From: an uncultured archaeon
GTDB taxonomy: Archaea > Asgardarchaeota > Thorarchaeia > Thorarchaeales > CAZPUN01
NCBI GenBank assembly: GCA_964589775.1
Contig: CAZPUN010000021.1
Location: forward strand, 53,768-117,767
Length of the DNA stretch: 64,000 nucleotides
Direction of reading: 5' to 3'
Part shown: piece by piece, positions 2-63,308 of the stretch
Position numbering within the stretch: the first letter of the stretch is position 1
Layout of the letters: each line of letters begins with the position of its first letter
Translations under genes and position numbers: made by a program
The notes under the pieces: generated by a model
Told to the model about the DNA's origin: nothing
The model's database searches: none
The model's input: only the letters and a program-made list of their open reading frames with translations

Positions 2-832
2 GCGCTTATCGTTTGCCGTCCGGGTCCCAGAATCGGTGATTATGCGCGGCGAATTGCAAATTTTCTAATTGACCGAAAAATTGAGGTTTATGCGACTCCT
101 GATTCATGTCCTGCTCTCTCAGAATTTATTATTGAATCTCAAATTCATGAATTAGAGCCTGATTTTGTCGTTACGGTTGGTGGTGATGGGACTGTATTGT
201 ATACCCTATCAAAGTTAAAGCGTCGCGATATTCCTCTTTTCTGCATTAATCGTGGCTCTTTTGGATTTATGACTGAAACTGATCTTGATAATGCAATACC
301 AGTTCTTGAAAAAGTTCTATCCGGAAATTATTGGATTGATGAAGCAATGAATTTATCTTCCGGTTTCGGAGATCAAATTTTTGCTGATGCGCAGAATGAA
401 GTAATGGTACATTCTGCTAAACCGGGGAAAATAATGACGTTCGATATTTTTCTTGATTCCGTATTGATCGAACGTGGGCGAGCAGATGGTGTTATTATTT
501 CTACCCCCACTGGCTCCACTGCTTATGCGCTTTCTGCAGGCGGTTCAATTCTTGATCCTCGTTTGAATGCAATAATTGTTGTACCCATATGTTCTCCATT
601 ACTAGAGTTACGCCCCATTGTTGTCCCTGGAGATAGCTCCATTGAAATAAAGATTACAAAGCCTCATGGCGAGGGCTTAGTTGTGATTGATGGGCAGGTT
701 TCATATAATATACCTCCTTTATCTACTGTTTGGATTAAAAAATCAAAGATTAAGACCCGTTTTATTCGGAGTGTAACAACATTTTATGATCGCTTTAGAA
801 CCAAAATAACTCGGGAAGACGATAATTTATGA
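2..832 (+). CDS. nadK: NAD kinase (ATP-NAD kinase), 5'-partial; the reading frame is open from the window edge
   Basis: The frame upstream of the listed ORF has no stops and encodes DFVVTVGGDGTVL (GGDG motif). Downstream it encodes VIISTPTGSTAYALSAGGSILDP, the NAD-kinase signature. The gene continues before position 1. Confidence 0.85.
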   Translation, partial: ALIVCRPGPRIGDYARRIANFLIDRKIEVYATPDSCPALSEFIIESQIHELEPDFVVTVGGDGTVLYTLSKLKRRDIPLFCINRGSFGFMTETDLDNAIPVLEKVLSGNYWIDEAMNLSSGFGDQIFADAQNEVMVHSAKPGKIMTFDIFLDSVLIERGRADGVIISTPTGSTAYALSAGGSILDPRLNAIIVVPICSPLLELRPIVVPGDSSIEIKITKPHGEGLVVIDGQVSYNIPPLSTVWIKKSKIKTRFIRSVTTFYDRFRTKITREDDNL

Positions 833-1335
833 AGTGTGTTGTACTAGACAGTGGTGCGATATTTAAAATTGATATTTCCGTTTTGCCATTTTCTTTTTTC
901 ACAACGCAATCTGTACTTTCTGAAATTAAAAATAGACGTACTGTGTCCCGAATAGACTTCGCCATATCCGCTGGTCGCTTGAGTATTCAGAATCCTAATA
1001 ATAATTCGATTGAAAAAATACAGGAAGTAGCAACTAAAACTGGGGACATCGCTGTATTATCCCATGTAGATATTGATGTATTGGCGCTTGCTTATGAGTT
1101 AAAAGGGTCGAATGAAGATGTTGAACTATGGTCTAATGATTTTGCAGTTCAGAATGTTGCGAGTATTTTGAATATTTCGTGGCGTTCTCCCGAGTATAGA
1201 ATAAAATCTGTATTGATCTGGGAATTTAAATGCCCGGGTTGTGGAAAGAGGTTTAAGAAGTTGACTCATGATGGTCTTTGTGATGTGTGTGGTACGCCCC
1301 TACGCAGACACAGAAAAAAACGAGTTATGCGCTAA
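829..1335 (+). CDS. Nob1-like PIN-domain endonuclease with a C-terminal zinc ribbon
   Basis: The N-terminal PIN-like segment reads VVLDSGAI...DIDVLALAYEL. The C-terminal CPGCGKRF...CDVCGT motif is a zinc ribbon. Length is about 168 aa, typical of archaeal Nob1. Its ATGA start overlaps the nadK stop. Confidence 0.5.
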   Translation: MKCVVLDSGAIFKIDISVLPFSFFTTQSVLSEIKNRRTVSRIDFAISAGRLSIQNPNNNSIEKIQEVATKTGDIAVLSHVDIDVLALAYELKGSNEDVELWSNDFAVQNVASILNISWRSPEYRIKSVLIWEFKCPGCGKRFKKLTHDGLCDVCGTPLRRHRKKRVMR

Positions 1336-5264: not shown

Positions 5265-6617
5265 TCATAGCATCATACTCATCATATCTATTTGTGAATA
5301 CAGTTCCTTGATAAGGTTGAAAGATGAAACAAGGACTCTTTCTTTTGCAATTACTGTTAGATTAATATTGATCTCTTTATTTTTTGAGATGATTTCTAGA
5401 TTTATTAGTGGTGCAATATTTTTTAGATTGTCTTGTATTAAATAACTACTCGATAATCGTTCAATTACTTTTTCGTTTGTTCCCTGCCACTGAAAGATCT
5501 TTTTTATTTCCATTGATGATATATATGTTGATTCAGGTAACTCTGAAAGTTGAACACATTTGATTATAAATTCTGGAATATTAGACACTATACCTTTCGC
5601 AGTTGCTATAATTTGTGAATTATCCATTTTGAATGTAATTGTTCTTAAGGCTCCAAAATCGGTGCTAAAAATAATTTCATCGTAATTTGATTCATCGGGC
5701 CTTAGTAGAACTTTGCCATATATCTTTATTGAAAAGATCTCATCATTTATGTTTGGTATTTCTGAAAATCTTGTATATTGTAATTTTTTCGGTTCTTGAT
5801 ATTTCTGAGTTTTTTGTTTTTGTTCAACAGATTCTTTCGTATCTTTTTGATGGGTTGAAATCTCTTGTGTATATTCTATGTTTTGTTTTTTGGCTGATGT
5901 TTTTGTTTCTTCTGAACTTGGTGTAGCTGGTAAAATCACACCGCGTTCTTTCAATAATTTTTCATAACTTTCTGACAATGACCGTGATATTCCTTCTATT
6001 AATCTTTCTACTGAAAACATATATTTTCGGTTGAATTCTGCTTTAAAATACACTTTTGTTTCATTTGATCGTACATTTATTATTATATGTCTAAATTCAT
6101 TTGTGGAGCTAAGTACAAAATCAATCATGCCATAGTTAATAGATTCTAAAAATTCTTTACAAGATGACTTTACTTTTAATGTGTCTGAACTTTGTATATT
6201 CATTTCATATTTGTAAAATTTGCGCGGTGGATCTTCGTATCGTTTATCATATATGTTCAAAGATATTTCACTTGAATTGCATACAGGCAAATATTTCTTC
6301 ATCATTCTATGAAAACTATTTGTCGTTGTAATATTTACTATACCGAATGAACCATCTATGAATAAGAGTCCAGACTTTATTGTTTTACTATATTTAGGTA
6401 CAAACTCGTACGCATTTGCCTTATTTTTCTTAATTGAACCTCCCCATTCTCTAAAATATTCTTTTATTATCTCCTCAGAACTATTCATATTTGTGATGGG
6501 ACCACTATCTTCAATTAATTTCTTTCGGACAAATCCAAAACCTACCAATAAACCTGCAATTATTAAATTCACATCAAAACATAGTACAATCATTTCCCGC
6601 ACCATACCATTACCCAT
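5265..6617 (-). CDS. Hypothetical membrane-anchored protein (450 aa)
   Basis: There is one N-terminal hydrophobic helix (LCFDVNLIIAGLLVGFGFV), followed by a long soluble region with a K/E/Q-rich low-complexity linker. I recognise no family. Confidence 0.4.
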   Translation of the reverse strand: MGNGMVREMIVLCFDVNLIIAGLLVGFGFVRKKLIEDSGPITNMNSSEEIIKEYFREWGGSIKKNKANAYEFVPKYSKTIKSGLLFIDGSFGIVNITTTNSFHRMMKKYLPVCNSSEISLNIYDKRYEDPPRKFYKYEMNIQSSDTLKVKSSCKEFLESINYGMIDFVLSSTNEFRHIIINVRSNETKVYFKAEFNRKYMFSVERLIEGISRSLSESYEKLLKERGVILPATPSSEETKTSAKKQNIEYTQEISTHQKDTKESVEQKQKTQKYQEPKKLQYTRFSEIPNINDEIFSIKIYGKVLLRPDESNYDEIIFSTDFGALRTITFKMDNSQIIATAKGIVSNIPEFIIKCVQLSELPESTYISSMEIKKIFQWQGTNEKVIERLSSSYLIQDNLKNIAPLINLEIISKNKEININLTVIAKERVLVSSFNLIKELYSQIDMMSMML

Positions 6618-9947: not shown

Positions 9948-10073
9948 TTGCTGTTTTTCTTTTCCTATTTTTTAGATATTGAGACCATATCAACAGAAAT
10001 ATTAATTATTTCTATATCTTAGTTCTTGGTGTAAAATTTGGAGCGTGTCCGACTCTCTTTAGGCACTGCAATA

Positions 10074-11063
10074 ATGCTAGAACTAGAATCCGGAATTTTT
10101 CCTCATGTACTTTCTACTGGGTTCATTATGACTTATACAAAAAATAAATGCATGGCAAATTGTGCGTTTTGTCCTCAGGCACGTGAGAGTCATGGACGCG
10201 CAGATATGCTTTCACGGATTACGTGGCCTGATTATCCTTTCTCAATAGTACTTCAGAGAATCGTAGAAAAACATAAGAAGTTCAGCCGATTTTGTATTCA
10301 GACTATTAACTATCCGACAGTTATTGAGGATAGTATTGAAATTATATCAAATCTTCGCGCAAAGACAAAAAAACCAATTTCCATCGCTATTCATGCGATC
10401 ACTATTGATGATATGAAACGGCTAAAAGAAGCTGGAGCCACGAATATTTCAATTCCTCTAGATGGTGCGACAGAGGAAGTTTTCGAACGAATAAAAGGTT
10501 CTAAGACCGGAAGTCCATATCGTTGGGCTAGTCATAATAAAGCAATTGATGATGCATTAAAAGTATTTGGCATAAATAATGTTTCGACACACATTATTGT
10601 TGGACTTGGCGAGACTGAACAAGATGTTGTTAAACTAATTGATCAAATGTACAATAAAGGAGTTCGTGTAGCTCTTTTTGCATTTACTCCAATAAGAGGG
10701 ACTGCTCTTGAAAAAATGTCTCAGCCCGACCTTGGAAGCTATCGGCGGATCCAACTAATTCGCTACCTGCTTGAACGAAAATATATTTCATATTCTAACA
10801 TTTCCTTCACAAATGGAAAGATTGCGAATATCGATATTAACCTTGAAAAATTGTATCACGCGTTAAAAGTTGGCCAACCGTTTCGAGTATCTGGCTGCCC
10901 CGGCTGTAATCGCCCATATTATAACGAGCGTCCGCTTGGTCCTATGTATAATTATCATCGTCGTCTTTCTAAAGACGAAATTAATAAGGCGATTAATGAT
11001 TTAGAAATCAAAATAAATGGTGATAAGATTGGACAGATTTCGTTTAATACCATTCTCAGTTAA
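10074..11063 (+). CDS. Radical SAM protein, candidate LipS-type lipoyl synthase component
   Basis: The CxxxCxxC motif CMANCAFC is present. It sits immediately upstream of a split lipoate-protein ligase. I preferred the ATG at 10074 over the TTG at 10038. Confidence 0.55.
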   Translation: MLELESGIFPHVLSTGFIMTYTKNKCMANCAFCPQARESHGRADMLSRITWPDYPFSIVLQRIVEKHKKFSRFCIQTINYPTVIEDSIEIISNLRAKTKKPISIAIHAITIDDMKRLKEAGATNISIPLDGATEEVFERIKGSKTGSPYRWASHNKAIDDALKVFGINNVSTHIIVGLGETEQDVVKLIDQMYNKGVRVALFAFTPIRGTALEKMSQPDLGSYRRIQLIRYLLERKYISYSNISFTNGKIANIDINLEKLYHALKVGQPFRVSGCPGCNRPYYNERPLGPMYNYHRRLSKDEINKAINDLEIKINGDKIGQISFNTILS

Positions 11064-11796
11064 TAATGCCTTCAAAAATATGGCTATTGATGAAGCAATT
11101 ATGATTGCTGTATCTGAAGGAACAGTACTTCCAACTCTGCGATTTTATCGTTGGGAACCATCTGCAATTTCAATTGGAACATTTCAAAGTATGACTGATG
11201 AAGTCGATGTTGAAAAATGTAAAGAGCTTGGTGTTGATGTTGTACGTCGTATAACTGGTGGCGGTGCTGTATATCATGACAAAAAGGGCGAAGTAACATA
11301 TAGCATTGCTGTACCTTTAGGTCACAGACTAGCACCTTCTGATATTCTTGAATCATATAAAATAATATGTAGTGGAATAATTGAAGGCTTGAAATCACTT
11401 GGAATACATGCAGAATTCAGTCCGATAAATGATGTTATTGTGAATGGTAAGAAAATCTCCGGGAATGCTCAGACAAGGCGAAAGGGTGTTTTGCTCCAGC
11501 ATGGTACTGTGCTAGTTGATTTTGATCCGGAAACGATGTTTTCTCTACTTAAGGTTCCAGATGAGAAGATACGAGATAAAAAGATAAAATTAGTTAGAAA
11601 ACGAGTTACTTCGATTAGACATGAACTCGGTAAAATGTTACCTCTTGAGCATGTTGCAAAACAATTGCGTAAATCATTCCAAGAAGCGTTATCTATAGAT
11701 CTTGTTGAGGATGGATTGACCTCTTATGAACTAAAGTTGGCTGAAAAAATTGCTGCGGAACGATATCAGAATCATGATTGGAATTTTAGGAGATGA
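11017..11796 (+). CDS. lplA: Lipoate-protein ligase A, catalytic (N-terminal) subunit
   Basis: RLIPFSVNNAFKNMAIDEAIM resembles the E. coli LplA N-terminus. RRITGGGAVYHD and GKKISGNAQ (BPL/LPL catalytic lysine motif) are present. The start may instead be the ATG at 11080. Confidence 0.75.
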   Translation: MVIRLDRFRLIPFSVNNAFKNMAIDEAIMIAVSEGTVLPTLRFYRWEPSAISIGTFQSMTDEVDVEKCKELGVDVVRRITGGGAVYHDKKGEVTYSIAVPLGHRLAPSDILESYKIICSGIIEGLKSLGIHAEFSPINDVIVNGKKISGNAQTRRKGVLLQHGTVLVDFDPETMFSLLKVPDEKIRDKKIKLVRKRVTSIRHELGKMLPLEHVAKQLRKSFQEALSIDLVEDGLTSYELKLAEKIAAERYQNHDWNFRR

Positions 11797-12071
11797 AACT
11801 AATGCAGATGATCGATTATAAAGTTCCTGGTGGGAAACTCCTTCGTATAAAAGCTGAAATTCAAGATGGCAAAATTGATAAAGTTATGATCTTAGGCGAT
11901 TTTTTTGTACACCCTGAAGACGCAATTGAAGAAATCGAGAAATCACTTTATGGCTGTCCTTTAAATAAAAACGATATTTTAGAGAGAATAAATCGCATAA
12001 TTTCCAGAGGCGTTTCTATAATCGGGTTCTCAGCTGAAGATGTCGCTGAAGTTTTGCTTCAAATGAAATAG
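11793..12071 (+). CDS. Lipoate-protein ligase C-terminal domain protein (LplB-like)
   Basis: DYKVPGGKLLRIKAEIQDGKIDKVMILGDFF matches the LplA C-terminal domain. It is translationally coupled to lplA (ATGA). Confidence 0.65.
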   Translation: MKLMQMIDYKVPGGKLLRIKAEIQDGKIDKVMILGDFFVHPEDAIEEIEKSLYGCPLNKNDILERINRIISRGVSIIGFSAEDVAEVLLQMK

Positions 12072-24849: not shown

Positions 24850-25128
24850 ATGATAAAGAAATTATTACAATTAATACAAAAAAATGGTATATCTAGTCGT
24901 TCTATTTTGGCAAAAGAAATGAATATCTCTGTTGAATTATTAGATTTGATGCTCACAGATCTGCAACGCAAGGGATATATTGAGGTTAACAAAATACCTG
25001 ATGGGACGTCATGTGAAATATGTCCATTTCATAAAATTTGCAAAATTTCAAAGGAAGAATGCGAATCTAATAATCAACAAACACTCAGATTAACTAAAAA
25101 GGGTCTTGATTTTGTAAATTCACAATAA
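24850..25128 (+). CDS. FeoC-like winged-helix protein with a C-terminal Cys cluster
   Basis: LLQLIQKNGISSRSILAKEMNISVELLDLMLTDLQRKGYIE is wHTH-like (FeoC-like). The C-terminus carries CEICPFHKIC...C. I chose the start at the ATG at 24850. Confidence 0.45.
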   Translation: MIKKLLQLIQKNGISSRSILAKEMNISVELLDLMLTDLQRKGYIEVNKIPDGTSCEICPFHKICKISKEECESNNQQTLRLTKKGLDFVNSQ

Positions 25129-25650
25129 TGATTTCTGTCGGACTTTTTCTAAAATACGTTCTACAAGTTTTTGGAATGCTTCTTCAACACCAATTGCATT
25201 TTTTGCGGATGCTCTTACATATTCAAGGTCATATTTTTCTACCACTTTCTTTACATTTTCCGGGTTAGTGTTTGATGGTAAATCAATTTTGTTCTCTATT
25301 AGTATGACCGGTATTTTTGAATTGACCTCATATAATACATTTAACCAATCATCGATCGTATCTAATGTTTCTGGTTTAGTTGTATCAAAAACAAAAAATG
25401 CACCCGCTGCATTCTGATAATATGCTCTTCTTAAATTTCTAAAACCTTGTTGTCCTGCAATATCCCAAATAACTAATTTTACGGTTAAATTTTTTACTTG
25501 TACGTGTTTAACGTGAATGTTGGTTCCCAAAGTTTTCAAATAGTCTTGACTGAAACTATCATAAACGAATCTACTGACTAGACTAGTTTTTCCAACTTTG
25601 CCTTCTCCTAGAAAGCAAACCTTGAATAAATATGTATTACGAGTTTCCAC
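25120..25650 (-). CDS. Ras-superfamily small GTPase (Rab/Ras-like)
   Basis: G1 is GEGKVGKTS, G3 is WDIAGQ, G4 is NKID and G5 is SAK. Length is 176 aa. Confidence 0.85.
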   Translation of the reverse strand: METRNTYLFKVCFLGEGKVGKTSLVSRFVYDSFSQDYLKTLGTNIHVKHVQVKNLTVKLVIWDIAGQQGFRNLRRAYYQNAAGAFFVFDTTKPETLDTIDDWLNVLYEVNSKIPVILIENKIDLPSNTNPENVKKVVEKYDLEYVRASAKNAIGVEEAFQKLVERILEKVRQKSLL

Positions 25651-51113: not shown

Positions 51114-52811
51114 TTATTTTTTGATTCTTTTTTCCTTTATAATTTTTAATAATTCTTTAAGTCCATTTTCAATGGACGGCCCTGTAATAATCGAAGTTTC
51201 TGTAAATAATGCTGGTAGTCCATTTTCGGCCTCTCTAGCTTTTGATATCAATTTGATTTTCTCTAATGCTTCGTCCTTTGAAACCGGTGCCTCGCCCATA
51301 TCCTGATCATTCGCAGTGATAATGCGTAAATCAATTTTGTTTCCAACAATAAGAATTGGTGTTTCAGGCCCTAACATTTGATTTATTTCTTTAACCCAAT
51401 AGTCAATACTCTGATAGCTCCATCGATCTACAACTGAATATACGATTATCGCTGCTTCTGCATCTGCATAGAATTTTCCACGTGTAATCTTTATTTTCTT
51501 AGCTTCATTCAAAGGCCAAATTTCTGTATCAAAAGCAACGTCCTTCAATGGAATTTCTTTTGTAAGAATTCTCATTGTGCTTAATGATGTTATTTGTTCT
51601 TCTTGTTCGTTGAACCCTATATTTTCAAATAGTGAACTCATTCCTACGTCATCTTCACCTAATACAACAACTTTAACTTTGTATTTGGGTAGTTCTCTTA
51701 CAACTAATGTCTCTACTTCTTCTTTTTCTGTGGTTGGCGTCTCTGTAGGTGCTTCCACTTTGGTTTCTATGGCGGGTGCTTCCACTTTGGTTTCTATGGC
51801 GGGTGCTTCCACTTTGGTTTCATTTGATACAATTTCGGGTTTAGAGGCTGATTCAGGAGTTATCTGTTTTTCATCACTATCATATTTTGTAGTCATCTGA
51901 TCAATAATTCTCAATGTGTATGAAACTAGATCTTCTTCTGTTGTACTTTGTTTAATTGTTTCCTCCATAATTTGCTCTAGGACTTCTTCATCAGTTTTTT
52001 CAATTTGGGGTATTATAATTTTTCTTTCATGTGTAGACTCTTCCACTTTAGTTTCTGTGGTAGGTGCTTCTACTTTAGTTTCTACGGGAGGGCCTTCCAC
52101 TTTAGTTTCTGTGGTGGGTGCTTCCACTTTGGTTTCTGTGGTGGGTGCTTCCACTTTGGTTTCTGTGGTGGGTGCTTCCACTTTGGTTTCTATGGCGGGT
52201 GCTTCCACTTTGGTTTCTATGGCGGGTGCTTCCACTTTGGTTTCTATGGCGGGTGCTTCCACTTTAGTTTCTGTGGCGGGTGCTTCCACTTTAGTTTCTA
52301 CGGGAGGGACTTCCACTTTGGTTTCTGTGGTGGGTGTTTTCACTTTAGTTTCTATGGCGGGTGCTTCTACTTTGGTTTCGCTTTTTCTTGTAGGGATCAC
52401 TTCTTCAATTATGTCACTAATTATTTTTGACTTATCAATAATCGGCTTTTTATCTGATTCTGGTATTGGCTTAGAAGTAGGTTCTATCGCTTCTGTTTGA
52501 GTTTCCTTAATTTCAGGTTTGATTGGTTCGACGGACCCCCAGATATCATCTGACTCAGGCTCTGGTTTAATTTCCTCTACTTCTACGAAGATTTTCTTAG
52601 CCTTTGGTATTCCAATCTTTAGCATGACTTCTTCAACTAATGCCGGCGGCAGTATCTTTCCTTTATAATAAAAGAAACGTTCTAGTTCTTTTCGGACTTG
52701 ATCAAATGACTTTCCTTTTACTGGAATTGTTTTTATTAATCTGCCTTTATCCTTAATGCGTATTGTTTTTTGCTCCAATGTTATTCCAAATGTTGTTCCT
52801 GGGACAATCAA
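51114..52811 (-). CDS. Multidomain protein with an N-terminal domain, a long (E-T-K-V-E-A-P-A/T-I/T)n tandem-repeat linker and a C-terminal Ras-like GTPase domain with a degenerate P-loop
   Basis: The C-terminal domain has KVKVVVLGEDDVGMSSL (G1 with Met in place of Lys), VGNKIDL (G4) and FTETSII (G5). The middle carries at least 16 copies of a 9-aa repeat. Confidence 0.6.
   Translation of the reverse strand: MIVPGTTFGITLEQKTIRIKDKGRLIKTIPVKGKSFDQVRKELERFFYYKGKILPPALVEEVMLKIGIPKAKKIFVEVEEIKPEPESDDIWGSVEPIKPEIKETQTEAIEPTSKPIPESDKKPIIDKSKIISDIIEEVIPTRKSETKVEAPAIETKVKTPTTETKVEVPPVETKVEAPATETKVEAPAIETKVEAPAIETKVEAPAIETKVEAPTTETKVEAPTTETKVEAPTTETKVEGPPVETKVEAPTTETKVEESTHERKIIIPQIEKTDEEVLEQIMEETIKQSTTEEDLVSYTLRIIDQMTTKYDSDEKQITPESASKPEIVSNETKVEAPAIETKVEAPAIETKVEAPTETPTTEKEEVETLVVRELPKYKVKVVVLGEDDVGMSSLFENIGFNEQEEQITSLSTMRILTKEIPLKDVAFDTEIWPLNEAKKIKITRGKFYADAEAAIIVYSVVDRWSYQSIDYWVKEINQMLGPETPILIVGNKIDLRIITANDQDMGEAPVSKDEALEKIKLISKAREAENGLPALFTETSIITGPSIENGLKELLKIIKEKRIKK
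51745..51830. repeat. 27-nt in-frame tandem repeat, block 1 (about 3 units)
   Basis: GGTGCTTCCACTTTGGTTTCTATGGCG is repeated head-to-tail. It encodes AIETKVEAP on the minus strand. Confidence 0.85.
52035..52385. repeat. 27-nt in-frame tandem repeat, block 2 (about 13 units)
   Basis: It is the same unit with wobble variants (TCTATGGCG / TCTGTGGTG / TCTACGGGA). Confidence 0.85.
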
Positions 52812-54404: not shown

Positions 54405-56528
54405 ATGTCCATATTATTATATTCTGATAAGCCGCTTTCTGGGAATGAAGTTGCAAAGCAAATTGGAATTACGCGTTATTATGTTTTTGAAATTTTGAAA
54501 AAATTATCTGAACGTGACTATATTACAGTAACTCCAACTCGTCCAAAATTATATTCTTTTTCAACATCCATTTTACAAGATAAAATTTCAGAAACGGAAT
54601 TATACTATGATAATTTAATTAAATCTGTTCAACGGAACGGTCCATTCGTGGTTCTCTCTGAATTAAAAGACTTTAATACAAATGCTGAGCGTATATATGT
54701 TGCATTAAAGGGAAGAAATCATACTGTACAATCTATTTCCAAAGTTACTGGAATTCCCCATTATACTGTGCGACAAATATTGAAACAATTTGTACAATAT
54801 AATTTAGTTCGTACCCGAAGATCAAATAAATCAATTCTTTATTTTCTTTATCCGTCAGAAATAGCAAGTGAAAAATTAGTTGAGTATCTTACTGAACTAA
54901 AAGAGAAACGAATTAAAACTCTATATGCTGCATACAATAAAATTGTAAGTCACGTTAAGAATAAAGAGCGAATCCTTGATGAAGAAATCAAAATAATTGA
55001 AGTAACCGGGCTCGAAAATGTAATAAAGCGCGTGCGTTTCATCATTCAAAAGTCTTCCAAAATCTTAAGTATTAGAGGTAAAAGATTATTTGACGCAATT
55101 TTGAATAGCCGAAACAAAAAAGAGGTCTTTTATGAGTTCAACTTGTATCTTGATGAGGTCACTCGGTTTGTTAGAAGAAATGGAGAACTCAATATTATAT
55201 TCAGTAATTATTATTTGAATGCAGAAAAATTCGGGAAGATGTTTAATGTTTTGGCGAAGTATAAAGATGTTATTGATGCTAGATTATTTAATGGACCGAC
55301 ATATGATATTGATATTATTGATGGCAAAACGATTATTGAATACTTGGGTGGAACCCCATTCAAGGCGATCATAATAAATCATCCTCAATTTGTAAACGCA
55401 CAAGTTGGTATGTTTAATTTATTATGGGAAAAAAGTCAAAATTTCTATTATGCGTATGAAAGATCATCTTCAGACATATTTAATAATGATTATGAACTAT
55501 TAATTGAATCTCTCCCAGTATTACGTGGTGAAAATGGAATTAATGTTGTAAACTCCTTCAATAACGCCATAAAAATTTGGTTTTATCTTGTAAAAAATGC
55601 AAAACAGCGAATTTATCATGTGCGTTATTATCCCGAAAATAAGGAATTTAATATGACGTATTTTCAAGATGCATACTCCCTTATCTATAATAAGGGTCGT
55701 GAGAATATTGATATTAAAATAATTAGTAACTTTCCGAATTATTTGATTAAAAAGATCGATAATGACCTCCGCTTACAAAACTTAAAAGTTGAATCTGTAA
55801 AAACGCACATTCATTATAATTTAAATAAGCACATTGGTTTTGATATCATAGATGATTTCGTATTAATTATATTTCATCCTGATGATTATTCGAAATTTGA
55901 AGACTATAAATTAATTATTGTACGTGATGATATACTACTTAATTTCATGATCCATGACTTTTTGGCTATGTGGCGTAATTCTTATGACTCAAAGTTTCTT
56001 ATATTTCCATACGTAAACAATCTTAATATGAAAAAAGAATTAATGCAAGTTCTAGATAATGATTTATTATCAAAACTTAAATCTTCAATTCCGATTCAAT
56101 TGGGTAAGATCGGCTTAACTGGATTCATAAAATTATTTTTAATTGCTGAAAAATCTATTTCTGTGATTGCACCTTGTAAATCTGACTTTGCTTCTGCATT
56201 TGGTATATATTCATTTGATGAGCTCGCCACATATATTTCAAAAACTCCTGAAGAAATACGGATAATTGTAACTGATGATGAATTAATGCCTTATATAAAG
56301 TCTTTTACCGATAATGTAAAGACTAATCTGAAACTTCACAAATTTACTTCTAAAATAGGTCCATTAACAAGCTATATTATAATTGATAATAAATATGTTC
56401 TTCAAATTTGGAAATCTGAAATCGATTTACTATATGATTATATTATCTATAAGCTTCCTCAATTTGTGAATCGTGCTATTCAACATTTTGAGTATGCATG
56501 GACTAACAGTGAAGAAGTCATTATCTAA
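54405..56528 (+). CDS. Large TrmB-like regulator with two tandem N-terminal winged-helix domains and a roughly 550-aa repeat-containing C-terminal region
   Basis: The first HTH is LSGNEVAKQIGITRYYVFEILKKLSERDYITVTPTRPKLY and the second is ERIYVALKGRNHTVQSISKVTGIPHYTVRQILKQFVQYNLVRT. The frame is open upstream to 54291 and encodes the first TrmB helix, but there is no canonical start. Confidence 0.55.
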   Translation: MSILLYSDKPLSGNEVAKQIGITRYYVFEILKKLSERDYITVTPTRPKLYSFSTSILQDKISETELYYDNLIKSVQRNGPFVVLSELKDFNTNAERIYVALKGRNHTVQSISKVTGIPHYTVRQILKQFVQYNLVRTRRSNKSILYFLYPSEIASEKLVEYLTELKEKRIKTLYAAYNKIVSHVKNKERILDEEIKIIEVTGLENVIKRVRFIIQKSSKILSIRGKRLFDAILNSRNKKEVFYEFNLYLDEVTRFVRRNGELNIIFSNYYLNAEKFGKMFNVLAKYKDVIDARLFNGPTYDIDIIDGKTIIEYLGGTPFKAIIINHPQFVNAQVGMFNLLWEKSQNFYYAYERSSSDIFNNDYELLIESLPVLRGENGINVVNSFNNAIKIWFYLVKNAKQRIYHVRYYPENKEFNMTYFQDAYSLIYNKGRENIDIKIISNFPNYLIKKIDNDLRLQNLKVESVKTHIHYNLNKHIGFDIIDDFVLIIFHPDDYSKFEDYKLIIVRDDILLNFMIHDFLAMWRNSYDSKFLIFPYVNNLNMKKELMQVLDNDLLSKLKSSIPIQLGKIGLTGFIKLFLIAEKSISVIAPCKSDFASAFGIYSFDELATYISKTPEEIRIIVTDDELMPYIKSFTDNVKTNLKLHKFTSKIGPLTSYIIIDNKYVLQIWKSEIDLLYDYIIYKLPQFVNRAIQHFEYAWTNSEEVII

Positions 56529-57333
56529 TCTTGTAAATTTCAGTGGTTTCATCAATCTTTATTATATTTGGCGTAAATCCAGTAAAATTAACACTTATGA
56601 CTGATATATCCGACTTAAATCCTTGTCGTAATCGTGCGATATATTTTTCATTTAGATTTACTAATCTGTTTAATGCTGGATCAATTTGAATCCATTTGCC
56701 ATTGACATATGCTTCTAACCATGCATGTCCTATTGTTTCTCCATCCTGTTTATAGTAATATCCAACAATTCGTCTTGCTGGAATTAAGAGTTGCCGTAAT
56801 ATCGAAATTGTTAAATCGGAAAATTCGTCGCAATCCCCTTCTAATGTTTGCATGACTTTTTTGGCACCCAGTCTCTCTGTCAGATTAGTTCTCAATTTGA
56901 TTTTTGAATTTACGAATTTATTTGTTAAAATAATTTTTTCATCGTCCGGGTGAGATCTGATAGATGTAATGAATTCTTGAAGATCTGGTATAAATTCCCA
57001 GAATTTTCGTTCTTTTAGATATTCATTTTTCCATGCTATTTTCAAAGATTCGTCCGATATGAAATTTCGATTTGTTTCAACAATTAGTTCCGCTGTAAAT
57101 TCTCTCGATTCATTCGGATTAAAATTTTTAATTTTCAGTCTTGCAAAGCTATTTCCTTCTGATTTGTGTATTATACGCATTAATGGCTGAATTGTTATTT
57201 TTCTAACGTGCTGCCAAGGTACCTTTGTATTTAGCGCCCATAGACCATTTATATTAGTAATCAAGCGGTCACATTGATTTTGTAATTTTAATTTATATAT
57301 TATTTTAAAAATCATAAATCTACCAAACCTCAC
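56521..57333 (-). CDS. Transglutaminase-like cysteine-protease-fold protein
   Basis: GDCDEFSDLTISILRQLLIPARRIVGYY carries the catalytic Cys. GHAWLEAY carries the His, and IQIDP the Asp. Confidence 0.7.
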   Translation of the reverse strand: MRFGRFMIFKIIYKLKLQNQCDRLITNINGLWALNTKVPWQHVRKITIQPLMRIIHKSEGNSFARLKIKNFNPNESREFTAELIVETNRNFISDESLKIAWKNEYLKERKFWEFIPDLQEFITSIRSHPDDEKIILTNKFVNSKIKLRTNLTERLGAKKVMQTLEGDCDEFSDLTISILRQLLIPARRIVGYYYKQDGETIGHAWLEAYVNGKWIQIDPALNRLVNLNEKYIARLRQGFKSDISVISVNFTGFTPNIIKIDETTEIYKIR

Positions 57334-57397: not shown

Positions 57398-58846
57398 ATG
57401 CCTCTTAAAGATGATGAACCCTTAGAAACTGATGAGAAAATGATTTCTGATCTACTTGATGAACTTGAAGTTCCTGAAGATTTGAAAGCTGAAATTAAAA
57501 CCGGAAAGATAAAGCAAAAATTCATCAAAACTGAAAGTGTAGATGTTGCACGATACAAATTGGATCTTGATAAAGCATCCGGGAAGCTAAGGAGCTCTCC
57601 AGAGCCATATCTTGATATTTCTAAAAATCTCAATAAGCTTAGTGAGCATCTAGAAGTGGATATTGTTCCGGTTCTGTTGAAATTCTATGTTACACTTAAG
57701 GGTGAACTATCTGTTGTAAAAGAATCGATATTGGCAAGAGCAAAATCTCGTGCAAAAATGTCACTTATTAAAATGTTTATTGATAAGGATCTTTCATATA
57801 TCATCGATGATGAATTTTCAAATATTGAATCCAAATCTGGTAGTGAAGTTTTAGAGCCGGTTCTTAATCAAGTACGTGATGTTGCAGATAAACTAAAGAA
57901 GTATGATCGTGAAATCAGAAATAATGTAGCTGAACAACAAAGAACTATAGAAGCATATATTGGGACCGTTTTAAGTGTAGTTGATGATATTTCTAAGTTA
58001 GTTGAAAATATTGATGTAGTTGAGCTACAAAAGCAGCTTAGAGAACGCGATGGTATTATAGAAGCTCTTCGTACGGAATTATCGACTAAAAATATGCAGC
58101 TAAAGGCTCGGGAAAAAGAAATTGAAAATCTCAAAGCAAGAATAAATGAGCTACAAGCAAGAGTTGATGAATTAGAAGAAAATATGGCATCTGGGGAAGC
58201 AATTACTCCAGGTTATGTGTCTGAATTGCGTGAAAAAGTTCGTGCTTTAGAAGCTTCTCGTTCGTTACTTATGAGTAAATATGAAGATGCTTTAAAGCAC
58301 ATTGAAGAATCTGAATCAGAAATCAAAGAATTATCTGATGCTTTAGCCCATAAGAAAATTGAACTTGAAGATGCTTTGTATAGAATTCGCTCATTGGAAA
58401 GTGAGATTGAGGAATTACGTAAGCGACTTGCAAAAGTTACAGAACTTGAAGACGAAATAAAGAAGCTAAAAAGTAGAGATCTAACTCATCTTCTAGAACT
58501 AAAGGAACAAGATCTTAATGTTATGAAAATACAACTAGAACGTGCAACAAAGGAGCGCGACGAATATAAGCAAGAACTCGATGAGTTAAAGGCACGTATG
58601 GAAAAGTTAGACTTGCTAATTGAGCGTGATGCAAAAACCATGGCGTATAAAGTATTAGAAAAACAAAAGCAATCTACCATTCGTGATTTGGCTCGACCCC
58701 TGGGTGTATCCCCGTCCACAGTTCGAACATGGATGAATGAATTTCAGACTCTTGGCTTAGTAAAGTATATTGATGATAATACTGTTGAAATTATTGAGGA
58801 ACCCTTACCTGCTGCAGAAGATGAAGAAAATAAAGAAAGTACGTGA
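57398..58846 (+). CDS. Coiled-coil protein with a C-terminal winged-helix domain (paralog B)
   Basis: Heptad-rich ELEEL, LKAR and IEELRK sequence. The C-terminus is STIRDLARPLGVSPSTVRTWMNEFQTLGLVKYIDDN. It shares Y.IDDEF with paralog A. Confidence 0.55.
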   Translation: MPLKDDEPLETDEKMISDLLDELEVPEDLKAEIKTGKIKQKFIKTESVDVARYKLDLDKASGKLRSSPEPYLDISKNLNKLSEHLEVDIVPVLLKFYVTLKGELSVVKESILARAKSRAKMSLIKMFIDKDLSYIIDDEFSNIESKSGSEVLEPVLNQVRDVADKLKKYDREIRNNVAEQQRTIEAYIGTVLSVVDDISKLVENIDVVELQKQLRERDGIIEALRTELSTKNMQLKAREKEIENLKARINELQARVDELEENMASGEAITPGYVSELREKVRALEASRSLLMSKYEDALKHIEESESEIKELSDALAHKKIELEDALYRIRSLESEIEELRKRLAKVTELEDEIKKLKSRDLTHLLELKEQDLNVMKIQLERATKERDEYKQELDELKARMEKLDLLIERDAKTMAYKVLEKQKQSTIRDLARPLGVSPSTVRTWMNEFQTLGLVKYIDDNTVEIIEEPLPAAEDEENKEST

Positions 58847-58858
58847 GGGTATGCATAA

Positions 58859-59935
58859 TTGAATATTCAGCGAAATAAGATACTCTATGCAGATCCCACA
58901 CAACTTCGAGAAGCCGAAATGTATGAGTCATTACCAGATGGCTCTGTAAAATGTAACTTATGTGCTAGGCGGTGTATCATAAAACCTGGTCGCGTAGGTA
59001 TTTGCCGTGTTCGAGCTAATATTGACGGAAAATTGTATTCGCTAAATTATGGACGATTAAATGGTATGTATCCAGATCCTATAGAGAAAAAACCTCTATT
59101 TCATTTTGCACCCGGTTCGATTACTTTTTCCGTTAGCACACCTGGCTGTAATTTCCGGTGTCAATTCTGTCAAAATCATCACACGGTATATGAACCAATT
59201 GACCATACATCGTTTATACCTCCAGAAGTCATTGTATCTATGGCACAACGGAGCAATTCTCAAGGAATAAGTTATACCTATTCTGAGCCTACTGTATTTT
59301 TTGAAACCGTGCTAGATACAAGTAAAATCGCTCATGAACTTGGACTTTACAACACATTAGTCACGAATGGCTATATGACTCCTGAAGCTATTGATTTATT
59401 AGCTCCTTATATTGATGCAGTAAGTGTGGATTTTAAGGGCTCCGGTAATACATTCTTCTATCGGCGATATATGGGTGTTCCATATCCTGATCCTATTTTT
59501 GATGCATTATTGGCGTACAAAAAACATGGAATTCATATTGAAATTACAAATTTGATATTACCTCAGATAGGTGATTATCCGGAAGATACTAAGCGAATTG
59601 CTCGTTGGGTTGCCGATAATCTTGGTGAAAATACACCATTTCATATAACTGCATTTCATCCTGCTTTTAAAATTCGTAATATTCCTCGGACATCATCAAA
59701 ATTACTCTTGAAGCATTTAGAAATTGTACGTAATGAGGGGTTACAATTTGTATATTCCGGAAATATTCCCGGTATGAGTACCGAAAGTACTTATTGTCCT
59801 AATTGTAATGAACTTGTGATTAGCAGATATAGTGTTTTCTTAAGTTCTAATAAAGCTACTGAGGATGGTCGATGTCCCAAGTGTGGTGCAGATCTTAATA
59901 TCGCAGGACTAAACTGGATGCGGAGGAGTACATAA
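58859..59935 (+). CDS. AmmeMemoRadiSam-system-type radical SAM enzyme (PflX-like)
   Basis: The N-terminal CNLCARRC...GICRVR zinc-ribbon-like motif is followed by GCNFRCQFCQN (CxxxCxxC). A C-terminal CPNC...CPKCG is present. It has a TTG start. Confidence 0.7.
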   Translation: MNIQRNKILYADPTQLREAEMYESLPDGSVKCNLCARRCIIKPGRVGICRVRANIDGKLYSLNYGRLNGMYPDPIEKKPLFHFAPGSITFSVSTPGCNFRCQFCQNHHTVYEPIDHTSFIPPEVIVSMAQRSNSQGISYTYSEPTVFFETVLDTSKIAHELGLYNTLVTNGYMTPEAIDLLAPYIDAVSVDFKGSGNTFFYRRYMGVPYPDPIFDALLAYKKHGIHIEITNLILPQIGDYPEDTKRIARWVADNLGENTPFHITAFHPAFKIRNIPRTSSKLLLKHLEIVRNEGLQFVYSGNIPGMSTESTYCPNCNELVISRYSVFLSSNKATEDGRCPKCGADLNIAGLNWMRRST

Positions 59936-60003
59936 CGAGCCTAGATCATCTAATAAAACTTTCTTGGGAAAAAGTAGGTAATGGTTATTTACCGCATTTA
60001 CTT

Positions 60004-60828
60004 ATGTGGTCCAATAGTAAAATTAAGAAGATCGCTCTAAAATTCAATGATTATTTTTCTGTTGGAATTGTTGGGCCTAAAATTTGTGTAGGCTATGTTG
60101 GTACGGACCTTTATCGGCATCCCTGCCCAGCGCACGAAAAAATTAATGGCGGGACTCAATGTAAGTTATGTTATCAGTTAGATGTAAATGCAGTTTGTTC
60201 TCGATGTACTGGTTCTGGCTGTGATGCTAGTTCAGAACTTCAAAGTAGGTGTATTAATACTCCAACAATCGTCTATATTGCAGGATTCAAAAGTGGTGTT
60301 TTAAAAGTTGGTGTCACTCGTGAATCTCGTGGATTATCACGTTGGCTAGAGCAGGGTGCGGATTTTGCGGTTCGATTAACCACTTGTCCTGATGGTCTCA
60401 AAGCTCGAAAAATTGAAGACTTTATATCTAGTAATTTTGGTATTACAAAAGTTGTACGAAGAAATAAGAAAAAGTTCTTCAACTCGACTCAATATTCATT
60501 TGAATGGTTCAAACACGAATTACATAAGCTATTTTCGAAAGTGCGTGAACTCTTTGGTTGTAAAATTTCATTGGACAATATCTTTAATTTTGAGCCATTT
60601 TATGGTAAGAACATATCCGTTTCTCCTACTGAAATTAATATTCCTCGAGATCTTTCTGATGAAATACGTGTATTAGGTAATATAGTAGCAGTCAAAGGGT
60701 CATTTGTAGTTTTGCAATATGAAAAATCTCATTATCTTATTGACTTTTCAAAAGCTTACGGATATCATCTAAATTGGCAAAGTCAAGTCGCAATGAAAGT
60801 TCAATCGAGTTTAGAGGACTTTTTCTGA
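60004..60828 (+). CDS. Cys-rich protein with a possible GIY-YIG-like core
   Basis: The N-terminal cluster is HPCPAHE...CKLC...CSRCTGSGC...C. TIVYIAGFKSGVLKVGVTRESRGLSRW resembles the GIY-(10)-YIG-R spacing. This is speculative. Confidence 0.3.
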   Translation: MWSNSKIKKIALKFNDYFSVGIVGPKICVGYVGTDLYRHPCPAHEKINGGTQCKLCYQLDVNAVCSRCTGSGCDASSELQSRCINTPTIVYIAGFKSGVLKVGVTRESRGLSRWLEQGADFAVRLTTCPDGLKARKIEDFISSNFGITKVVRRNKKKFFNSTQYSFEWFKHELHKLFSKVRELFGCKISLDNIFNFEPFYGKNISVSPTEINIPRDLSDEIRVLGNIVAVKGSFVVLQYEKSHYLIDFSKAYGYHLNWQSQVAMKVQSSLEDFF

Positions 60829-60894: not shown

Positions 60895-61722
60895 TTGGAA
60901 TTGGACAGTCCTCGATCAAATATACAGTTTATAAGTATAATCCGAAAATTCGGTGGGGAATCGCTTATTTCAGTTGAATATAGTAAAAATTCGGATATCG
61001 ATGAAGATTTAATCTCTGCATTTTTACAGGCATTTTCTATTTTTGCGGGGGCAGGCGATTCTCAAGATGGACTAAGTTCGATCGAAAAAGATGGATTTAA
61101 CTATATTATTGAAACCACTGAAAAAATTCTAGGCGTAATTGTCTTAACTAAGATTGAAGATGAGCAAAATATTCGAAATAAGTTAAAGGAGTTATGTAAA
61201 GAATTTGAGGATATTTATGCATATCATTTAGATAAATGGACTGGTAATATATCTCATTTCAGAGAATTTCTAATATATATAGTTTCTAAATTTCCACTTG
61301 CCAAAATTGATTATGATCTTGTTCCGGTAAAATCTATAGATGGCGCAACAAAAACTGTAGGTCAAACTGCTGAAATTATTGAAACTGTTAAAAAGATGAT
61401 TAACGGGAAGCGAACCGTTTTGGACATAATAAACGCATCAGAAATTCCTGAAGAATTTGTAATCGGCGCCTTATCTTTAATGAAGCGATTTGGTGAAATT
61501 AAGTTTAAGCGGTCTATAAAAGAGGAAGATAAACCGCGAATTGTTGCACCAATTGGACCACAACTCAGAAGATTTTACGCCGATGTGGTTGACCAGTTAT
61601 CCGAGTTATGTACTGGTGAAATGACGATTAAAGAAATATCTTCCAAGTTGGGTATTGAATTTAATACTACTAAGTTTATATTAGAAAAATTAGCTGATTC
61701 AGGATATGTTGAATTCTTATAA
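60895..61722 (+). CDS. Roadblock/longin-like N-terminal domain fused to two winged-helix-like domains
   Basis: ESLISVEYS / EDLISAFLQAFSIFAGA / GFNYIIETTEKILGVIVLTK follows a beta-alpha-beta-beta pattern like Roadblock/LC7. wH-like segments are TVLDIINASEIPEEFVIGALSLMKRFGEI and IKEISSKLGIEFNTTKFILEKLADSGYVE. Confidence 0.4.
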   Translation: MELDSPRSNIQFISIIRKFGGESLISVEYSKNSDIDEDLISAFLQAFSIFAGAGDSQDGLSSIEKDGFNYIIETTEKILGVIVLTKIEDEQNIRNKLKELCKEFEDIYAYHLDKWTGNISHFREFLIYIVSKFPLAKIDYDLVPVKSIDGATKTVGQTAEIIETVKKMINGKRTVLDIINASEIPEEFVIGALSLMKRFGEIKFKRSIKEEDKPRIVAPIGPQLRRFYADVVDQLSELCTGEMTIKEISSKLGIEFNTTKFILEKLADSGYVEFL

Positions 61723-61771: not shown

Positions 61772-62179
61772 TCACATTATTTGGTGTAATATCTTCTTAA
61801 TATTTCTGACAGCCTTTTTAACGTCGTTGAACACTAATCCCAGCTTTGTATCCTGTCCAGCAGTTACAATTATTATATTATCTTTATCAACTGTCATCAC
61901 AACAGTTACACCATTTTCTCCATCAATAATGATAGCTCTAACATTCCCCTGGTTTAGATTCTGTGCTGTTTGGTTTCCTGTTGCATATAATGCAGCAGAT
62001 ACTGCAGCAATAAGAGCTTCATTTTCCTCTCCGGTCATATAATTAGCTACAGGTAACCCTTCAATTGTAAGAACAGCTGCAGAAGTAATAGGTGATGATT
62101 GCACTAGTTCTTTTAACTCTTCTGTAATTTTACTTACTAACGGGCTTGATTCGTATTGGTCTGCATTATTATATCCCAT
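61772..62179 (-). CDS. Roadblock/LC7 (MglB-like) domain protein
   Basis: ITSAAVLTIEGLPVAN...ALIAAVSAALYATGNQTAQNL...VRAIIIDGENGVTVVMTVDKDNIIIVTAGQD follows the canonical Roadblock pattern. It is 135 aa. Confidence 0.7.
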   Translation of the reverse strand: MGYNNADQYESSPLVSKITEELKELVQSSPITSAAVLTIEGLPVANYMTGEENEALIAAVSAALYATGNQTAQNLNQGNVRAIIIDGENGVTVVMTVDKDNIIIVTAGQDTKLGLVFNDVKKAVRNIKKILHQIM

Positions 62180-62267: not shown

Positions 62268-63308
62268 TTAATTCGTTTCTATTGTATCAATTAATTTTGT
62301 ACTTATTAGCCCCGGAGCTTCTATTTTTTCATTTGGTGTTTTCATGATCATTAGAACTTTTTCAGCATCCTCATGTAGTCCATGTTCTCTCAACAACTCT
62401 ATAAATTTCATTCCTGTTGTAATTGTTAGTCCTTTTTCTGGTATACCATTTTTAATGGAATCTAATAATGCTTCTAATGGTATGTTTCTTACTTTTATTA
62501 AGTCATTTTTATGTTTTTCAAGGTGTTTTAGGCCTTTAACTACGATTCCTCTTAATTCCTTTTGGTCTTTTGTCTCTGGTCTTCTTTGCAATATGATCTT
62601 GTACCGCTTGATTCCATTTTCTATCAGGTCTTTAATTGTGATATATTCCCCATATTCATCAATTGGTGACTTTACAGATGTTGAAATTAGCCACGCGGTT
62701 CCGAATTCTTTTGCGTACCTTGCGCCTTTTAATATTTCAGATTCTGCCAGTGGGAAAAATGAACGATATGCCTTGTATTCACATGCAAGTAACCATGAGG
62801 GGTCTCTATTCTCAACTATTAGATCTGGGGTTAATGTGTATCCGGAACCGATTTGTGGTATTGAATAATCTGCATTTGGTGCTAGGATTCGCATCAATTT
62901 TAAAAATGCAATATGGAAAATATTATGTCGTAGGTTGCGTGATTCTTGCGGATGGCGTATTCCTGCAGTATGATATAATTTCGGCATATCTGGGCTGATT
63001 CCTAATTTTCCCTTGATATATTGCTTTGCTGTGATCCTTCCTTCTTTATGTTGTTTTTTAACTAGCTCTACTGCTGCTACATATGCAAGTGCTCGGAATA
63101 ACCTTCTGCCTTCGTCAAGTAACTCATCAATTGGATCGATCGGCTCTGTATAATCTTTGGGTGGTTCCAAGCTCTCTATATCAATATATTGAGCTGCTGT
63201 ATCCAAGTCACCACCCAATAGATTCAATATATTTGTGAATTTTTTTTCAAGATTTTTTGACTGTACATATTTTCGTATTGCTATTTTTTGCTTATTGCTC
63301 AAATCCAT
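62268..63308 (-). CDS. Hypothetical protein with a PD-(D/E)xK-like motif
   Basis: GYTLTPDLIVENRDPSWLLACEYKAY gives a PD...(13 aa)...E-Y-K arrangement consistent with a restriction-endonuclease-like fold. The rest is unrecognised. Confidence 0.3.
   Translation of the reverse strand: MDLSNKQKIAIRKYVQSKNLEKKFTNILNLLGGDLDTAAQYIDIESLEPPKDYTEPIDPIDELLDEGRRLFRALAYVAAVELVKKQHKEGRITAKQYIKGKLGISPDMPKLYHTAGIRHPQESRNLRHNIFHIAFLKLMRILAPNADYSIPQIGSGYTLTPDLIVENRDPSWLLACEYKAYRSFFPLAESEILKGARYAKEFGTAWLISTSVKSPIDEYGEYITIKDLIENGIKRYKIILQRRPETKDQKELRGIVVKGLKHLEKHKNDLIKVRNIPLEALLDSIKNGIPEKGLTITTGMKFIELLREHGLHEDAEKVLMIMKTPNEKIEAPGLISTKLIDTIETN

Follow-up and report, generated by a model that had tools for sequence, protein, structure and literature searches.

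The 64-kb stretch of archaeal DNA analysed here (the window; G+C ~34%, densely coding) carries an ordinary, intact and bona fide gene for AmrS, the radical S-adenosylmethionine (SAM) enzyme of the AmmeMemoRadiSam system, and thus a known kind of gene. With a probability that we put at about 0.7, it is a vertically inherited ortholog of the usual type in an Asgard archaeon related to Thorarchaeota/Lokiarchaeota, with amrA (AMMECR1) and amrB (Memo) located elsewhere in the genome. AmrS, AMMECR1 and Memo form a three-gene system that was defined mainly through co-occurrence across genomes. Few uncharacterised systems are as widespread among archaea and bacteria, medical interest attaches to the human homologs of two of its members, and we know of no substrate for it. 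The literature searched contained neither an experimental paper on AmrS nor a solved structure of the enzyme.

The initial annotation had called the gene product an AmmeMemoRadiSam-type radical SAM enzyme on the strength of its Cys-rich N-terminus and the motif GCNFRCQFCQN, and family models bear this out. The protein scored 290.1 bits against NCBIfam TIGR04337 (cut-off 220, E 1.9e-86), covering profile positions 3-329 of 349; Pfam returned only the generic Radical_SAM domain. In alignments of two sets of homologs (12 and 54 sequences), the Cys residues of the N-terminal segment, of GCNFRCQFCQN and of the C-terminal CxxC pairs were invariant, and all family-invariant residues are kept in the window protein. 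A large protein collection held 7134 homologs at E<=1e-10. The nearest relative is 90% identical (NCBI GCA_053940065.1), all others lie at 55-59% identity or below, and those with names are Thorarchaeota, Lokiarchaeota or Promethearchaeota proteins designated "AmmeMemoRadiSam system radical SAM enzyme". The window AmrS shares with TIGR04337 members the CX2CX3CX9C and CX3CX2C motifs, the C-terminal zinc ribbon and the overall length, and is 48-59% identical to archaeal members given that name by NCBI. It is set apart by a somewhat higher divergence than was seen in the other archaeal sequences compared, by its pairing with a DUF2797 gene and by having no AmrA or AmrB gene nearby, the last of which is typical in archaea.

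The fold of AmrS is PflA-like, and weak matches were obtained to NrdG2 (TIGR02495, 51 bits) and PFLA (TIGR02493, 50 bits). Together with a gene for the anaerobic ribonucleotide reductase NrdD ~5 kb before the window start (L096 18871-20955, about 4-6 kb from it), these features could point to a misassigned glycyl-radical activase, for example an NrdG-type activase for this NrdD. Both scores are nevertheless far under their cut-offs (131 and 232 bits, respectively), as are those of other radical SAM families, whereas the TIGR04337 score is well over its own. AmrS is only 19% identical to PflA (PDB 3c8f) and, unlike glycyl-radical activases, adds an N-terminal Cys cluster and a C-terminal zinc ribbon, modules that are AmrS-specific and invariant. 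No glycyl-radical enzyme gene adjoins AmrS, and NrdD lies >60 kb away from it, with no link between the two. The family scores led us to reject an activase identity, which we regard as extremely improbable. The nearby NrdD gene is consistent with an anaerobic lifestyle.

As the initial annotation had stated, neither AMMECR1 nor Memo is recognisable in the window, and neither lies in the 6.5-6.8 kb past either end. The motifs RGCIG and PHAGxxYSG were not found in any of the six frames of the 64-kb window. Profiles for AmrA and AmrB were built from bacterial proteins adjoining AmrS, the seeds being confirmed by NCBIfam as members of TIGR04335/TIGR04336; these profiles had no match in the window, in the 6.8 kb past its 3´ end (L088, ENA contig k141_80022) or in the 6.5 kb 5´ of its start (L096, k141_538249). 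Window and flanks, for which precomputed Pfam annotations were also used, together amount to ~77 kb of genome. As positive controls, the AMMECR1 profile detected the archaeal structures PH0010, MM0484 and ST0229 (E 8e-46 to 2e-31), and the Memo/LigB profile detected human MEMO1 (1.5e-38). Since these sensitivity controls passed, the local absence of both partners stands.

A locally orphan AmrS had been thought unusual because enzymes of this kind were taken to be encoded, as a rule, beside AMMECR1 and Memo homologs, a premise that did not hold up for archaea. We scanned GTDB with one genome per species, which gave 80 AmrS loci (26 from archaea and 54 from bacteria), and Joint Genome Institute (JGI) metagenomes, which gave 80 loci at 48-57% identity, each with an archaeal nearest neighbour (742 kb of flank in total; 23 loci with >=3 kb on both sides). 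Flanks were inspected as available, up to 10 kb. AmrA and/or AmrB was present in the flanks of 10 of the 54 bacterial GTDB loci, frequently as an immediately downstream AmrB-AmrA fusion, and of none of the archaeal loci (0/26 in GTDB, 0/80 in JGI, 0/106 together). When only GTDB loci with >=3 kb on both sides are counted, the fractions are 5/30 for bacteria and 0/11 for archaea. Across 178 loci searched with AMMECR1 and Memo/LigB motifs and profiles, nothing was found except in the 10 bacterial loci and in one JGI locus (L154), where a gene 5 kb from AmrS encodes a generic LigB dioxygenase that NCBIfam ruled out as AmrB. An AMMECR1 arCOG is present in 429 of 524 archaeal genomes, and the gene that the same study names as linked codes for a PIN/Zn-ribbon protein instead of a radical SAM enzyme (PMC6393860). 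Adjacency to, or fusion with, AmrA or AmrB is thus not a defining feature of the AmrS family. The system is dispersed in archaea, and a locally orphan AmrS is therefore the expected state; the lack of AmrA and AmrB next to it is no reason to flag an anomaly there. Because archaeal AmrS loci lack this adjacency as a rule, the orphan position does not imply a different substrate or partner set, as had been suggested.

A stronger form of that suggestion is that AMMECR1 and Memo have been lost from the genome altogether, leaving a true orphan that acts on a different substrate. The empty ~77 kb and the relative divergence of the window AmrS would fit such a loss, as would a gene at 829-1335 (+) that overlaps the end of an NAD kinase gene and encodes a PIN_6 and zinc-ribbon protein: it resembles the reported AMMECR1-linked family and has no AMMECR1 beside it. 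Yet local absence of the partners is the archaeal norm, the residues that are invariant in the family are all kept, and AMMECR1 occurs in most archaeal genomes (PMC6393860). We consider a true orphan improbable.

What does stand beside AmrS is a gene on the same strand for a DUF2797 (PF10977) protein, the Cys-rich product that the initial annotation placed at 60004 and put forward as a possible functional partner. It scored 57.4-57.9 bits against PF10977 (gathering threshold 25), and its Thor-like orthologs scored 50-68 bits. Starting with a beta domain that holds a Cys cluster, this Zn-ribbon protein continues into a central domain with weak GIY-YIG likeness and ends in a small beta-barrel. 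The motif VY..F....KVGVT..R...R..EQGAD is invariant and common to the window protein and haloarchaeal members, although the two are only 25-30% identical. In contrast to the GIY-YIG domains of I-TevI, UvrC (N-terminal domain) and SLX1, the central domain has Lys in place of the second Tyr. It gave no Pfam GIY-YIG match, and hhalign against I-TevI gave a non-significant E of 0.39. A Foldseek search of the PDB returned nothing significant, no match to PDB sequences was detected, and no experimental work on DUF2797 was found in the literature searched.

The DUF2797 gene shares its first 22 nt with AmrS if, as is most likely, it starts at CTG 59914 and not at the annotated ATG 60004. The 30 in-frame codons 5´ of that ATG (LDAEEYITSLDHLIKLSWEKVGNGYLPHLL) are conserved in relatives, align with the first strand of the family ("VQIVGY") and form confident strands in an AlphaFold model (predicted local distance difference test 89.7, predicted template modelling score 0.87), and relatives start at TTG or ATG exactly at the position of the window CTG; we therefore regard 59914-60003 as coding. 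Read in the AmrS frame, which overlaps here, the T-to-C change at 59914 is silent. The real protein is thus probably 304 aa long and was shortened to 274 aa by gene callers. The 22-nt overlap suggests translational coupling between AmrS and DUF2797.

Both genes are part of a block of seven, which we traced through Pfam-annotated contexts and local searches: transglutaminase-like (-), coiled-coil winged helix-turn-helix (wHTH) (+), AmrS (+), DUF2797 (+), wHTH (+, 1-2 copies), Roadblock (-) and a 346-aa protein (-) (Table 1). The block was found in the window, a 91% relative (L002), a Thorarchaeota metagenome-assembled genome (L005/L006) and the metagenomic loci L099/100, L101/102, L105, L106/107 and L108, and the regions flanking it differ between lineages. 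It is specific to this part of the Asgard tree, and must be old because it is kept across the Thor-like and window lineages, whose AmrS proteins are only 55-59% identical. Only in the window lineage does AmrS directly follow the coiled-coil gene; some 525 nt separate the two in the Thor-like group. As read from the sequence, 57398-60828 is probably one transcription unit with the coiled-coil wHTH gene first, because AT-rich, TATA-like sequences and GAGGAG precede the ATG of that gene, no spacer lies 5´ of AmrS or DUF2797, and a 66-nt AT-rich spacer, which may hold a separate promoter, precedes the 275-aa wHTH gene. A defence-island reading of the block was rejected on PADLOC results, since the matches to JetC/LmuB (~21 bits) are coiled-coil noise and that to the pVip radical SAM protein (30 bits) is weak.

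The arrangement raises the possibility that AmrS and DUF2797 work together in this Asgard clade, with DUF2797 as a substrate or nucleic-acid-directed partner that acts beside AmrA/AmrB or replaces them. DUF2797 lies immediately 3´ of AmrS in the window lineage, L002, L005 and the metagenomic loci listed above; the stop-to-start spacing is an overlap or <=12 nt in every lineage that has both genes; the pair persists across an AmrS identity of 55-59%; and AmrS resembles an activase directed at a protein. The entire block is conserved, however, so that this adjacency may merely be inherited gene order. The locus L007, which is labelled Lokiarchaeota and whose AmrS falls inside the Thor-like group, keeps the block and has no DUF2797 within 10 kb. 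Elsewhere DUF2797 stands alone: neither the haloarchaeal gene nor that of a further archaeon has a radical SAM gene near it. Among the AmrS loci examined, operon-like pairing is limited to the window lineage and the Thor-like group, given that DUF2797 was present at 0/80 GTDB loci and, in the JGI set, only at the Thor-like L099-L108. The part of the partner proposal that stood is therefore the tight, conserved pairing in two Asgard lineages, and L007 and the solitary DUF2797 genes tell against the rest; a functional pair seems to us unlikely. We hold slightly more doubtful the specific version in which Thor-like Asgards recruited AmrS into a translationally coupled pair, DUF2797 being its protein substrate or a nucleic-acid-targeting partner.

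If AmrS is the ordinary ortholog that we favour, its chemistry would follow that of its superfamily motif. C97, C101 and C104 would bind a [4Fe-4S] cluster, on which SAM would be cleaved reductively to a 5´-deoxyadenosyl radical, and this radical would abstract a hydrogen atom from the substrate. That substrate is most likely a protein or peptide, because the core of AmrS is most like PflA, which acts on a protein. The four-Cys site at the N-terminus, which may bind an auxiliary Fe-S cluster or a metal, would be a family-wide accessory, as would the C-terminal zinc ribbon. One transcript probably carries AmrS together with the coiled-coil wHTH gene before it and the DUF2797 gene that overlaps it, and AmrA and AmrB would, following the archaeal rule, most likely be supplied from elsewhere in the genome. 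Work by Burroughs and colleagues from 2019 reportedly ties Memo/AMMECR1 contexts to the modification of nucleotide bases and isoprenoids.

Several points weigh against this interpretation. The presence of amrA and amrB in the genome is an inference, the search having covered ~77 kb of it; the window AmrS is more divergent than usual, at 55-59% identity to Thor-like sequences versus 68-76% among the latter; and the tight, conserved DUF2797 pairing could mean an added or different partner for AmrS. Being representative of archaeal copies and of their usual dispersed layout, the window AmrS adds little in itself. Only one mildly new lead is worth keeping, namely that two distant Asgard lineages conserve AmrS and DUF2797 as an overlapping pair: if DUF2797 were indeed a substrate or partner of AmrS, it would open a first experimental route to what the AMMECR1/Memo/AmrS system acts on.

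Table 1. Coordinates of AmrS, its motifs and the genes of the surrounding block (window positions unless a locus is named).
Feature	Position	Strand	Remarks
Transglutaminase-core protein, divergent left edge of block	56521..57333	-	PF01841 57 bits; position conserved
Coiled-coil protein with C-terminal wHTH	57398..58846	+	12 nt upstream of AmrS; orthologs in the same place in all block-bearing loci
Shine-Dalgarno-like GTGAGGG	58843..58849	+	Overlaps stop codon of upstream gene; 9-10 nt 5´ of AmrS TTG; read from sequence
AmrS gene, AmmeMemoRadiSam-system radical SAM enzyme	58859..59935	+	358 aa; TTG start
AmrS N-terminal Cys cluster, C32-x2-C35-x3-C39-x9-C49	58952..59005	+	Invariant in alignments
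AmrS radical SAM motif, C97-x3-C101-x2-C104 in GCNFRCQFCQN	59147..59170	+	Invariant in 54-sequence alignment
AmrS C-terminal zinc-ribbon-like C313-x2-C316 ... C339-x2-C342	59795..59884	+	Cys invariant; weak Zn-ribbon model matches
DUF2797 gene (PF10977)	59914..60828	+	Probable start CTG 59914; annotated ATG 60004
275-aa protein with C-terminal wHTH	60895..61722	+	TrmB 26.9 bits; conserved in block
Roadblock/LC7 protein	61772..62179	-	PF03259 41.9 bits; position conserved
346-aa protein, right edge of block	62268..63308	-	Orthologs E 1e-76 to 1e-83 in Thor-like loci
NifB-like radical SAM gene	L005 13823-14647; L006; L007 12951-13778	- (L005, L007)	nifB model 200 bits, under cut-off

For AmrS itself, the TTG start, or one close by, is preferred over the ATG at M21, because the 90% relative has Val at that position. 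The N-terminal extension that precedes the common "EA.LYE" start is likewise conserved in this relative, and M21 was ruled out as the start. The GTGAGGG sequence would be the ribosome-binding site of AmrS.

Other radical SAM genes were observed close to AmrS in some loci. Thor-like blocks contain an extra NifB-like gene (~274 aa) between the wHTH genes and Roadblock, and the window has none. A distinct, uncharacterised PflA/NrdG-like radical SAM gene is found close downstream of AmrS in 46/110 archaeal loci, mostly of Bathyarchaeia type; in L135, for instance, it occupies 5299-6390 (~363 aa), 71 nt after AmrS on the same strand. With 33 bits on TIGR04337, this downstream gene is not an AmrS.

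Among the other products of the block, the 346-aa protein had no match in Pfam, NCBIfam or PADLOC; by eye, its motif TPDLIV...ACEYK is like the core of PD-(D/E)xK nucleases. The N-terminus of the 275-aa wHTH protein looks roadblock- or longin-like by eye, and its L007 ortholog has a weak match to HTH_NPRL3 (NPRL3, GATOR1). This protein and the adjacent Roadblock/LC7 protein may be an Asgard pair of eukaryote-like regulators.

Further from AmrS, a 565-aa protein encoded at 51114-52811 (-) combines a long run of TETKVEAP-type repeats with a C-terminal small GTPase domain, its L002 ortholog matching Arf, Ras and Roc, and a further small GTPase is encoded at 25120-25650 (-). A second radical SAM gene in the window, at 10038-11063 (+), is unrelated to AmrS and encodes a LipS2-type lipoyl synthase (337 bits, cut-off 270); it is adjoined by genes for LplA-like lipoate-protein ligases at 11017-11796 and 11793-12071.
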